64,000 nt of DNA from Malacoraja senta. Taxonomy: Eukaryota. The notes under the pieces were generated by a model, which had not been told where the DNA came from, ran no database searches, and saw only the letters and a program-made list of their open reading frames with translations. Positions 18,637-50,945 of this stretch are shown here, in pieces. Made by a program: the position numbers and the translations under genes. The first letter of the stretch is position 1. Every line of letters begins with the position of its first letter. The DNA lies in assembly GCA_038087875.1 (NCBI GenBank), contig CM075990.1, positions 17,300,001-17,364,000 on the forward strand. Direction: 5' to 3'.

Positions 18637-18777
18637 GAGGTGGGAGATTGCAACTTTCACGTGGTCCGCCCTATTTCGACAAATGCAATTAACCTGGCGT
18701 GCACAATCAAATAAGATCAAATACAACAAGTTGTCCTCCAACTTTAGGCTGTGCACGCCATACACAAGAAGAAGAAG
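18637..18777 (+). mobile_element. ~140-bp HDV-ribozyme-headed short retroelement, copy A (degenerate)
   Basis: GAGGTGGGAGATTGCAAC...(AGA)n tail; TSD atccatttctat/atccacttctat. Confidence 0.8.
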
Positions 18778-26480: not shown

Positions 26481-27237
26481 AGACCAGACTAGACTAGACT
26501 AGACTAGACTAGACTAGACTAGACTGGACTGGACTGGACTGGACTGGACTGGACTGGACTAGACTAGACTAGACTAGACTAGACTAGACTAGACTAGACT
26601 GGACTGGACTGGACTGGACTGGACTGGACTGGACTGGACTGACTGGACTGGACTGGACTGGACTGGACTGGACTGGACTGGACTGGACTGGACTGGACTG
26701 GACTGGACTGGACTGGACTGGACTGGACGGGACGGGACGGGACGGGACGGGACGGGACGGGACGGGACGGGACGGGACGGGACGGGACGGGACGGGACGG
26801 GACGGGACGGGACGGGACGGGACGGGACGGGACGGGACGGGACGGGACGGGACGGACGGGACGAGACGAGACGAGACGAGACGAGACGAGACGAGACGAG
26901 ACGAGACGAGACGAGACGAGACGAGACGAGACGAGACGAGACGAGACGAGACGAGACGAGACGAGACGAGACGAGACGAGACGAGACGAGACGAGACGAG
27001 ACGAGACGAGACGAGACGAGACGAGACGAGACGAGACGAGACGAGACGAGACGAGACGAGACGAGACGAGACGAGACGAGACGAGACGAGACGAGACGAG
27101 ACGAGACGAGACGAGACGAGACGAGACGAGACGAGACGAGACGAGACGAGACGAGACGAGACGAGACGAGACGAGACGAGACGAGACGAGACGAGACGAG
27201 ACGAGACGAAATTAAACTACTAAACTAAACTAAACTA
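26479..27237. repeat. Compound pentanucleotide microsatellite (CTAGA)n(CTGGA)n(CGGGA)n(CGAGA)n
   Basis: Direct inspection. Confidence 0.97.
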
Positions 27238-29513: not shown

Positions 29514-30136
29514 CTAGGTTGCTGAAGGAATGGCTCCAGAAGTGATGCAGGCTGTACCCAATCTGTAAGGTATTCACCCCAACCAATGTCTGGCTCTTCT
29601 GGGCAATATTGTCCATCAGTGCAGATCCTGGGGCAACAATGTCCTAGTTCACTGTAATGTCCACTTTGCATTACAGCGCTGGTGATGAAAAGCCAGCTGT
29701 CAAAGTGCTGAGTCATCTCCCATTACCAGTCTGTTGCCTAAACAGGAAGTCCGAGCATTTAATTAGAGGCATGGCTGACCTTCAAGAGTCAATTCAAATT
29801 CCTGTCCACATGTCATTGCTAAACTACAAGGATTCCTGATTGGGAAAGCAGGTTCTGTTTTTAAAAGCAACAACAGGCCTTGTGTGTTTGTTGCAGGCTG
29901 TTGCTGTCATTATTTTAAGACTGCTCTTGCAATGATGCTGGGGATTCTGATAAATCATCACAAGATCTAGTTTCCACCCACTGGGCCCTGGTAGGAGAGA
30001 GACACAAAGTAGGTGCATGCTCACAGGAAGAATTATTTGCATTCCTGTTGCATTTTTCTCATTCCTTTCAATCACCTTTTAAAATCTTGAAGGGTCAAGT
30101 TGAGGTGAAACTATTTCCGCATTTAATAAGTAGGTC

Positions 30137-30190
30137 GGGGTGGGAGATTGCAACCTTCATGTGGTCCGCCCTGTTTCGACGAATGCAATC
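30137..30190 (+). ncRNA. Minimal HDV-like self-cleaving ribozyme motif
   Basis: P1 GGGGUGG/CCGCCCU, P2 GAUUGCA/UGCAAUC, P3 ACC/GGU, L3 UUCAUGU, minimal P4 region GUUUCGA, J4/2 CGAA. Confidence 0.8.
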
Positions 30191-30275
30191 AACCCGGACG
30201 TGCACAATCAAATAAGATCAAATACAACAAGTTGTCCTACAACTATAGGCTGTGCACGTCACAGGCAAGAAGAAG
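30137..30275 (+). mobile_element. ~140-bp HDV-ribozyme-headed short retroelement, copy B
   Basis: GGGGTGGGAGATTGCAACC... ending in AGAAGAAGA; TSD-like ataagtagg/ataactagg. Confidence 0.85.
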
Positions 30276-30289
30276 ATAACTAGGATTTA

Positions 30290-30655
30290 AAGAAGGTAGA
30301 CACAAAATGCTGGAGCAACTCAGCGGGTCAGGCAGCATCTCTGGAGAAAAGGAATAGGTGATCTTTTGGGTTGGAACCCTTCTTCAGACTGAAAGATAGG
30401 GGGGGGGGGGGAATTGGAAACAAGAACAGGCCAGGACATATCAGGGCCGGGCAACAGATGACCTATCAGGAGGGGTGAGGTCCATAATGGGCCATTGTTG
30501 GCTGGGGATGGTGTGCTATTGAGGAGACACCAGTGGAACATAGGAAGCTAGAGGGGGGGAGGGGTAGAGAAGGGGTAAGGAGGTACTTGATATTAGAGAA
30601 ATCAATGTTTATACCATTGGGTTGTGAGCTGTTCAAGTGAAATATGAGGTGAATA
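30290..30655 (-). mobile_element. Penelope-like element 3' fragment
   Basis: HLIFHLNSSQPNGINIDFSNIK followed by the hammerhead-type terminal repeat. Confidence 0.7.
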
Positions 30656-31792: not shown

Positions 31793-32225
31793 TCTTCTTC
31801 TTCTTGCGTATTGCGTGCACAGCCTAAAGTTGTAGGTCAACTTGTTCTATTAGATCTTTTGTTTCTGCACATCGGGTTGATTGCATAAAGGGCCTGTCCC
31901 ACTGTACGAGGTAATTCAAGAGCTCTCCCGAGTTTAAAAAAAAATCAACCTGGTGGTAAGCACGTAGAATGTACATAGCGGGTACGTCGGAGCTCGGGGA
32001 CGTCTCTTAGCGGCTCGTAACGCTAACGGCAGGTACTCGGGAAATGCAGTTGAAATGTTGAAAAATGTCCACGAGAGCCCCGAGTACCTACGAGCGGCTA
32101 TTACCGTAATTCTCCGAGTTCGAATCAGGGGAAACTCGGGAGAACTCTTGAATTAGCTCGTACAGTGGGACAGGCCCATTAGTCGAAACAGGGTGGACCA
32201 CATGAAGTTTGCAATCTCCCACCCC
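31793..32225 (-). mobile_element. HDV-ribozyme-headed short retroelement, copy C, interrupted by a MITE
   Basis: Both halves of the element flank the MITE at 31890-32177; TSD-like gggacccactgt/gggaccaaccgt. Confidence 0.8.
31890..32177. mobile_element. PIF/Harbinger-like MITE
   Basis: ~46-bp TIR GGGCCTGTCCCACTGTACGAG.TAATTCAAGAG.TCTCCCGAGTTT, flanked by TAA/TTA. Confidence 0.85.
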
Positions 32226-32658: not shown

Positions 32659-32799
32659 TATACACAATGTTGGGGACACTTTAAGGTCATAAGGTCATAA
32701 AGAATAGGAGTAGAATTAGGCCATTCGGTCCATCAAGACTACACCGGTTGTTCTATCTTTCCCTCCTAACCCCATTCTCCTGCCCTCTCCCCAAAAGAG

Positions 32800-32869
32800 T
32801 GGAGGCCAGGGATTGAACCCAAGGCCTCATACATGCAAAGTATTCGCTCTACCACTGAGCTACATCCCC
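32800..32869 (-). pseudogene. tRNA-Ala(TGC)-derived pseudogene
   Basis: GGGGATGTAGCTCAGTGGTAGAGCGAATACTTTGCATGTATGAGGCCTTGGGTTCAATCCCTGGCCTCCA: intact A/B boxes and TGC anticodon, but ~2-nt deletion in the 3' acceptor strand and a mismatch atop the anticodon stem; TTTT follows. Confidence 0.8.
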
Positions 32870-47631: not shown

Positions 47632-47772
47632 GGGGTGGGAGATTGCAACCTTCATGTGGTCCGCCCTGTTTCGATGAATACAATCAACCCGGCGTGCACA
47701 ATCAAATAAGATCAAATAGAACAAGTTGTCCTCCAACTTTAGGCTGTGCACACCATATGTAGGAAGAAGAAG
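47632..47772 (+). mobile_element. HDV-ribozyme-headed short retroelement, copy D
   Basis: Same 5' end and GAA tail; J4/2 reads TGAA (putative catalytic C lost); TSD-like aacccttt/aacctttt. Confidence 0.8.
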
Positions 47773-50469: not shown

Positions 50470-50945
50470 CAGCACAGTGGAGCAGCTGGTAGAGCCACTG
50501 CCTCATGGCACCAGAGACCCTGGTTCGATCCTGACCTCGGGTACTGCCTGTGTGGAGTTAGCATGTTCTCCCTGTTTCTCCCTGCGCAGATTTCTTCTGG
50601 GTGCTCTGGTTCCTCTTGCATCACAAAGATGTGCATGTTTGTAGGCTAATTGACACTCTGTAAATTGCCCCTAGTGTGTAGGGAGTGGATCTGCTTCATT
50701 TTGCATATGGCGTGCACAGCCTAAAGTTGCAGGACAACGTTCTATTTGATCTTATTTGATTGTGCACGCCGGGTTGATTGCATTCGTCAAAACAGGGCGG
50801 ACCACGTGATGGTTGCAATCTCCCACCCCAAGGAGTGGATGAGAAAGTGGGATAACAGAACTAGTGTGAATGGGTGATCGATGGTTGACATGGACTCGGT
50901 GGGCCGAAGGGCCTGTTTCCATTCTGTTTTTCTGAAACTAATTCT
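50470..50945 (+). mobile_element. V-SINE (HE1-like) interrupted by HDV-headed element copy E
   Basis: SINE sequence resumes after 50829. Confidence 0.8.
50691..50829 (-). mobile_element. HDV-ribozyme-headed short retroelement, copy E, nested in a V-SINE
   Basis: Same 5' end; TSD agggagtggat/aaggagtggat duplicates host SINE sequence. Confidence 0.85.

Follow-up and report, generated by a model that had tools for sequence, protein, structure and literature searches.

A 64,000-nt stretch of Malacoraja senta DNA (contig CM075990.1, positions 17,300,001 to 17,364,000), referred to here in its whole length as the window, contains dispersed copies of a short element resembling a short interspersed nuclear element (SINE). 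To judge from its letters, this element is probably a non-autonomous retroposon headed by a ribozyme that resembles the one of hepatitis delta virus (an HDV-like ribozyme). The copy singled out in the initial observation, 139 bp at 30137..30275 of the forward strand, differs from the family in a 1-bp insertion at 30198. Its first 54 nt (30137..30190, +) make up a putative minimal HDV-like ribozyme, predicted to cleave 5' of 30137, in which P1 is formed by 30137-43/30166-72, J1/2 by 30144-45, P2 by 30146-52/30184-90, P3 by 30153-55/30163-65 and L3 by 30156-62; G37 lies at 30173 and is followed by a linker (30174-79) and by J4/2 (30180-83), with the putative catalytic C44 at 30180. The 3' body (30193..30264, +) is a long imperfect hairpin, GCGUGCACA.../...UGUGCACGC, around a small hairpin AAGUUGU CCU ACAACU, as read from the minimum-energy fold of the whole element (-35.2 kcal/mol), and is probably the part that is recognised by a reverse transcriptase. 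The element ends in a (GAA)n-type tail, CAAGAAGAAG (30265..30275, +), and the nine bases that follow (30276-30284) match the upstream copy of a target-site duplication at 30126..30134 (+) in 8/9 positions by eye, two extra bases (TC, 30135-36) standing between this duplication and G1.

It had originally been predicted that five such copies are present, at 18637+, 30137+, 32225-, 47632+ and 50829-, and a 22-nt head probe allowing up to three mismatches indeed finds exactly five sites in the window (18638+, 30138+, 32224-, 47633+ and 50828-; expected 0.00 from 100 shuffles). Four copies are colinear and full-length (~139 bp) by blastn, that at 32225- being split, with aligned parts at 32225..32177 and 31886..31797. 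The prediction that all copies share the same G as their start and are flanked by target-site duplications holds for 5/5 copies in both respects (8-12 bp, by eye), while the (GAA)n tail that was ascribed to each is found in 4/5, that of the 50829 copy being degenerate. The second copy (18637..18774, +; duplication 18625-36/18775-86, 11/12) carries G2>A, C19>U, G37>A and a J4/2 reading CAAA; the third (47632..47772, +; duplication 47624-31/47774-81, 7/8) carries C44>U by CpG decay and G49>A; and the fourth, which is the one with the degenerate tail (50691..50829, -; duplication 50840-30/50690-80, 10/11), keeps an intact fold with U20>A. The fifth (31794..32225, -; duplication 32237-26/31793-82, 10/12) is divided into a head at 32225-32177 and a remainder at 31886-31794 by a later insertion, outside the family, at 31887..32176 (-), which falls after position 49 of the copy and parts J4/2 from the P2 3' strand. 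This ~290-bp insert has terminal inverted repeats of ~21 bp and a target duplication of 3-5 bp (ATG / TAATG-like), and looks like a miniature inverted-repeat transposable element.

The family was further studied in the assembly to which the window belongs (1.94 Gb, 6,182 contigs). In total, 38 copies were examined in full, namely the nine present in the window and its flanks (264 contiguous kb, of which the window holds five) and the 29 best genome hits, whereas tallies by eye were made on the first 100 places listed for each anchored pattern search (35-nt matches). A DNA search of the genome yielded 1,304 first-look candidates, of which 40 were scored; these are 94-100% identical and essentially full-length, each reaching to within three bases of both ends of the query. 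Exact matches number 3,995 for a 28-nt head segment, 4,703 for a 20-nt anchor and 5,694 for a 19-nt anchor, the reversed control patterns of these three head anchors giving no match in the genome. Since the 19-nt anchor is retained in only 4/9 copies of the 264 contiguous kb, the genome total, which is at least 5,694 copies by exact anchor, is probably about 10^4. The density of the family in the region of the window is ~4-5 times the genome average.

The 5' ends of these copies are uniform. Among the first 100 places listed, GGGGTGG directly follows six unrelated bases in 71 by eye, five more have one extra J1/2 base with GGGGTGG otherwise in place, and the rest have substitutions in the first seven bases; no common sequence upstream of G1 was seen among these 100 anchored places. 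The genome-wide check of copy number and of uniform 5' ends that had been proposed with the initial observation gave thousands of matches and, among these 100 places, no upstream sequence in common. An automatic search for duplications with stricter thresholds flagged them in 25/38 copies, in 18/25 of which they adjoin G1 without offset, and overall the duplications of 8-13 bp together with the (GAA)n tail provide a LINE-type (long interspersed nuclear element) insertion anatomy that is typical of target-primed reverse transcription. The base preceding G1, which is the last base of the duplication, is T in 42/71 in-register copies, and this suggests a target-site preference of the endonuclease. 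In the flanks of the window, two heads (L031:5026-5180 and L033:9740-9890) have bases added between P1 and J1/2, reading GGG(G)GUGAAGGGAGAUUGCA, and may represent a subfamily in which J1/2 is longer and P1 has six pairs; this head form is absent among the 100 rows listed for the anchored pattern.

Contigs from four public runs, each labelled as a different organism, likewise contain thousands of copies, and cover there extends from the G1 bin to the tail. Depth there goes from 0-82 in bin 30121-32 to about 700 to 330,000 in bin 30133-44, an edge that belongs to contigs and does not show transcript starts, transcript ends or expression. At least three other organisms are among the labels of the runs that hold the element. 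Because the G1 starts are uniform, duplications flank the copies and the run contigs are covered in this manner, the element is a retroposon whose RNA has a sharply defined 5' end, and several species share it. Part of another repeat family, which is far more abundant, lies at 30292-30373 of the window; in the contigs of the four runs, it shows many internal rearrangement joints and a summed depth ~10-70 times that of the SINE-like element.

The 54-nt head has a consensus in which P1 pairs GGGGUGG (1-7) with CCGCCCU (30-36), P2 pairs GAUUGCA (10-16) with UGCAAUC (48-54) and P3 pairs ACC (17-19) with GGU (27-29), while J1/2 is GA (8-9), L3 is the 7-nt UUCACGU (20-26), G37 is followed by UUUCGA (37-43) and J4/2 is CGAA (44-47). 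This pairing is the one originally proposed, and it proves correct on the consensus: P1, P2 and P3 have 17 standard pairs out of 17, with 7/7 in P1, including the wobbles G1.U36 and U5.G32, and 7/7 Watson-Crick pairs in P2; L3 offers the cytosine for P1.1 and U20 and G25 as pair partners, and the residues C22, G25, G37 and C44-N-A-A are present alongside the G1.U36 wobble, T36 being kept in nearly all of the ~92 in-register rows listed. As P1 and P2 cannot be nested together, the fold would be a pseudoknot; of its two nested halves, P1+P3 is the minimum-energy fold (-12.4 kcal/mol) and P2+P3 has -7.3 kcal/mol. Within P1.1, C22-G37 is present, and the second pair would be U21.U38, as modelled for CPEB3, or would be absent if U38 closes a UUCG loop. 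P4 is replaced by a linker of 5-6 nt (UUUCGA or UUCGA).

The fold is intact in 26/38 copies, i.e., in 24/29 best genome hits and in 2/9 copies of the 264 contiguous kb. L3 reads UUCACGU, as originally described, in 92/100 and 90/100 of the first genome matches listed for two patterns, and the description is thus right for the majority of the family; it fails for the copy at 30137 itself, whose UUCAUGU is, from its sequence, a CpG-decay variant or a minor lineage. Variation between copies is mostly CpG decay at C24, C31/G32, C41/G42 and C44/G45, as expected for neutral copies. In the 92 rows listed, the CpG-type changes counted by eye are C31>T (11), G32>A (27), C41>T (5) and G42>A (13); C44>T is found in five rows, only with G45 next to it, and these five account for all but one of the six alterations of C44. 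On our reading, the majority of copies in the genome are dead on arrival and undergo neutral decay. One-sided changes that preserve pairing occur in P1, namely G32>A, which turns U5.G into U5-A, and U5>C in three rows listed. J1/2 is GA in ~60, AA in ~29 and GAA in six of 100 listed places, and position 45 is G in 50, U in 26 and A in 16 of the 92 rows, U45 being the majority form (about half) in three of the four runs, whereas in X3 it is the minority. The variants that are frequent enough to mark subfamilies or other species all fall at sites where the fold tolerates change.

Motif searches were run with a generic descriptor of our own, requiring G1, P1 of 7 pairs, P2 of 6-8 and P3 of 3, an L3 of 7-8 nt with C and G in place, a G after P1, a linker or P4 of 3-40 nt, and C-N-A-A. 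On both strands of the 264 kb it finds two sites, both of them family copies starting at G1; it has no match in 104 (12 + 92) dinucleotide-preserving shuffles of the 264 kb, and none in the 264 kb themselves when the catalytic C is swapped for A, G or U. Covariance models were built from phage ribozymes of the theta type: 80 loci with the commonest theta core gave 72 full-fold parses and 53 unique sequences, from which one odd J4/2 parse, ten six-pair P1 and four misaligned sequences were dropped, leaving 38 for model R1 (P1+P3). In the window, R1 ranks the five heads above all other matches, G1 standing at model position 1 in each alignment, with 15.9, 15.9, 15.5, 9.4 and 8.1 bits (E 0.09-6.7), and unrelated matches follow just under the lowest head at 7.8 and 7.7 bits. 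R1 also matches 27/29 heads of the genome loci, and it gives 21.8-22.3 bits (E 0.004-0.005) to five consensus heads with an intact core.

Nothing in the heads resembles a classical Pol III (RNA polymerase III) SINE. At E up to 10, Rfam reports no likeness to tRNA, 5S, 7SL or snRNA, and ARAGORN detects nothing in them, its only find being an unrelated tRNA-Ala. A tRNA-derived head was rejected on these grounds, in agreement with the original prediction that the element has none. The tRNA-Ala(TGC)-like sequence, recognised by Rfam (41.9 bits) and by ARAGORN, lies at 32797-32869 (-) of the window, within a few hundred bases of the split copy, and may be either a gene or a head belonging to a tRNA-derived SINE.

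An autonomous LINE sharing both ends of the element, for which a search had been proposed at the outset, did not emerge from four genome-wide junction patterns (41, 43, 57 and 22 matches) that would reveal a longer element joined to the head, body or tail: there is no recurrent foreign flank and the matches are, by eye, family copies with internal deletions or truncations, the patterns needing exact anchors of 18-25 nt, which a diverged LINE partner would escape. The 264 kb contain no 3'-only fragments of the family, and of their 17 (GAA)3+ sites, seven are family tails and no other has the 3' region. In the one intact-looking LINE nearby, which is CR1-like, an open reading frame at L037:2034-3011 (+) encodes a reverse transcriptase, the nearest atlas clusters carrying RVT_1 and coming from Chordata, which marks the genome as chordate; this LINE was rejected as the (GAA)n partner, its tail, ~100 bp downstream, being of the (TGTTTCTA)n type. 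A search of the genome with PF00078 gave 159,856 first-look candidates. Elsewhere in the window, a minisatellite with a 15-bp period (26584-27228) leaves all six frames open over ~200 codons.

Taken together, these data make it likely, if far from certain, that the element is a non-autonomous, protein-less retroposon of ~139 bp, of the type without long terminal repeats (non-LTR), the 5' end of whose RNA would be made by its own P4-less HDV-like ribozyme, the first 54 nt. Since this head has every sequence feature of the smallest HDV-like self-cleaving RNAs known, the exact start of a promoterless element would be explained. In the cycle that we propose, a sense-oriented copy lying within any transcribed region would be read through, its head would fold into the nested double pseudoknot P1/P2/P3/P1.1, and the transcript would be cut directly 5' of G1, the catalytic base being C44 of J4/2. 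By target-primed reverse transcription, a LINE enzyme would then copy the RNA so released, which bears the 3' hairpins and the (GAA)n tail; the outcome would be insertions with their exact start at G1, their end in (GAA)n and duplications of 8-13 bp on either side.

Several observations weigh against this account. The Rfam release 15 library includes HDV, CPEB3 and other drz families, and its HDV-type models include P4 and cannot encode the pseudoknot. None of these models matches the element at E up to 10 in stretches of 201 nt and 66 nt. Model R2 (P2+P3, 21 sequences) does rank the heads first, but with only 13-13.5 bits (E 1.1-1.6), close to noise matches of 12.1-12.5 bits, and R1 gives 19 bits to a chance match on an AT-rich hairpin at L015:368-416 (-) that lacks the P3/L3 core. 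The R1 score is moreover inflated and partly circular, because the pattern with which the training set was fetched, ACC..ACGT..GGT, is also present in the element. The support that covariance models lend to a ribozyme head is modest. P1.1 is weak (one G-C plus U.U, or a single pair), and where the P1.1 strand opposite L3 is GA or GG in theta ribozymes, the element has G-U or G alone, with one A missing. As for P1/P2 covariation, proposed earlier as a check of the fold, no compensatory double change in P1 was seen among ~100 listed copies; the family being too uniform and its copies decaying neutrally, covariation neither supports nor refutes the fold.

The main rival to a ribozyme-made 5' end is an ordinary SINE-like retroposon whose start is set by an internal promoter, either Pol III or, as in Pr77 of the L1Tc element, Pol II, the fold being inactive, vestigial or coincidental. 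The sharp 5' end, like the uniform starts and duplications on which it rests, is equally expected from a fixed transcription start, which also counts against our account; four T in a row do not occur in the consensus, which Pol III could therefore read through; and a ribozyme with a weak P1.1 and a very short linker could be slow or dead. We nonetheless regard this explanation as unlikely, as no A or B box can be read in the head by eye, the heads lack the small-RNA likenesses sought above, and the coincidence needed would be large: 17/17 pairs, an L3 identical to that of CPEB3, a linker identical to that of minimal phage ribozymes and a predicted cut site that is the first base of the element, in a sequence context where 104 shuffles yield no descriptor match. 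An internal promoter could possibly co-exist with a ribozyme, as in L1Tc Pr77, and the 77 nt of L1Tc/NARTc are described as promoter and ribozyme at once (PMC3383444, PMC3185411).

A somewhat less probable alternative accepts the fold as real and gives it a main role other than 5' processing, such as binding by the protein of a partner, second-strand synthesis or integration, or sees the family as an internally deleted derivative of a ribozyme-carrying LINE, in the manner of a short internally deleted element (SIDE). For the 5' pseudoknot of the R2 element, a role of this kind as a structured 5' end has been proposed, and the R2 protein binds a pseudoknot within the R2 5' ribozyme region. R2 SIDEs and NARTc are described as keeping the head of their autonomous partner (PMC6765202). 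The derivation from a LINE is opposed by the lack of a recurrent foreign flank in the four junction patterns (within the reach of exact anchors, which would miss a diverged partner), by the lack of 3'-only fragments in the 264 kb and by the different repeat in which the one nearby LINE examined ends. Finally, a GC-rich repeat head could fit a permissive motif by chance. HDV-like descriptors are known for false positives, and fewer than 50% of first-pass theta hits carried the active motif according to PMC10879173. The silence of the descriptor in the shuffles and after replacement of the catalytic C, the colinearity of the head with CPEB3 numbering and the coincidence of the predicted cut site with the first base of the element make this very improbable.

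If the ribozyme is active, the minimal fold would serve to launch promoterless retroposons in vertebrates, and the CPEB3 ribozyme could be traced to a mobile element of a type for which this family would be a concrete candidate. That HDV-like ribozymes head non-autonomous retroelements is already in print (NARTc, R2 SIDE). What would be new is a natural eukaryotic HDV-like ribozyme without P4, minimal forms being nearly all from gut phages according to PMC10879173; a high-copy SINE-like chordate family without a promoter of its own and without a recognisable autonomous relative; and a mobile element with the exact active-site loops of the CPEB3 type, which bears on the unsolved origin of that ribozyme. 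Literature searches, with repeat databases and several key papers outside their reach, found no report of a eukaryotic element with the P4-less form; nor did they find, Dfam and Repbase lying outside their scope, a SINE of fishes or cartilaginous fishes with an HDV-like ribozyme, and three strings of the element and three of neighbouring repeats had no main-text match in the literature searched. The stronger claim, that this is the first working P4-less theta-type HDV-like ribozyme in a eukaryote, only 54 nt long, heading an orphan retroposon and present in ~10^4 copies in a chordate lineage, is put forward tentatively and in our estimate falls a little short of an even chance. The thousands of decayed genomic copies also offer a natural mutation library for what would be a very small ribozyme.

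Among known systems, the R2, RTE, Baggins and L1Tc retrotransposons carry 5' HDV-like ribozymes, and the non-autonomous NARTc and R2 SIDE elements are headed by them (PMC6765202, PMC3414825, PMC3185411, PMC4035085); a review adds that some SINEs use HDV-like ribozymes (PMC6765202). In all of these, the 5' ribozyme frees the RNA from a co-transcript and fixes its 5' end, a logic that the element would share. However, the L1Tc ribozyme is 77 nt and that of R2 ~184 nt long, and both are shared with an autonomous partner, whereas the head of the element has 54 nt and no P4, and no partner sharing either end was found with the exact-anchor patterns. The hammerhead SINEs of schistosomes and the retrozymes of plants (PMC6765202, PMC4918200) are likewise short non-autonomous elements with an embedded self-cleaving motif, but this motif is a hammerhead, used in tandem or circular-RNA mechanisms and dependent on a Pol III promoter in schistosomes, while that of the element is HDV-like.

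The closest layout is that of the metagenomic minimal drz-Mtgn and the theta ribozymes, which have in common with the element a P1 of 6-7 pairs, J1/2 of 1-3 nt, P2 of 7, P3 of 3, L3 of 7 nt, a linker of 5-8 nt in place of P4 and J4/2 C-N-A-A. According to PMC10879173, minimal drzs "lack the P4 domain"; nearly 99% of theta/minimal ribozymes are in phages, i.e., gut Caudoviricetes, often at the 3' end of a tRNA gene; a scan of human, mouse and protist genomes gave only 12 hits, all in bacterial genomes; and four selected theta ribozymes, not assignable to the TTTCGA type, underwent self-scission in vitro. The linker TTTCGA appears in 317 of the 7,704 rows of its supplementary list, and TTCGA in one. 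These TTTCGA rows almost always have L3 T|TC|NCGY, P1.1' GA and J4/2 CTAA, CGAA or CAGA, with ACC/GGT-type cores, and one phage theta subclass has the same letters as the element in P3 (ACC/GGT), L3 (T|TC|ACGT), the linker (TTTCGA) and J4/2 (CGAA/CTAA). Position 45 is variable in both. The reduction of P4 to a UUCG-containing loop, as originally read in the element, is thus a recurrent natural solution. The settings differ, the theta ribozymes being found in phages, often by the 3' end of a tRNA, and the motif of the element heading a dispersed retroposon in a 1.94-Gb chordate genome.

To our knowledge, CPEB3 is the only HDV-like ribozyme conserved in mammals. As published (PMC4836649, bioRxiv 10.1101/2022.09.22.508989, PMC10274809), it has a 7-nt L3 made of U20 U21 C22 A23 C24 G25 U26, a P1.1 of C22-G37 and U21.U38 without J1.1/4, and a catalytic C57 followed by G58 and two J4/2 adenines; a published mouse CPEB3 primer shows GUUCACGUCGC. 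Positions 1-38 of the element are colinear with this numbering, positions 20-26 and 37-38 being the same residues, and C44 G45 A46 A47 correspond to C57-G58 and the two adenines, so that the likeness to CPEB3 in L3 and J4/2, which had been put forward originally, agrees with the published residues. CPEB3 differs in having a real P4 hairpin, a length of 67 nt and other helix sequences (P3' CGC in mouse), and in being a single conserved intronic locus known from mammals only, whereas the element is a dispersed repeat. The two nonetheless share L3 UUCACGU with its ACGU palindrome, a P1.1 predicted to be weak, the absence of J1.1/4 and J4/2 C-G-A-A, and the core of the element is identical, letter for letter, to CPEB3 in L3, G37-U38 and J4/2, and to one phage theta subclass in P3, L3, linker and J4/2.

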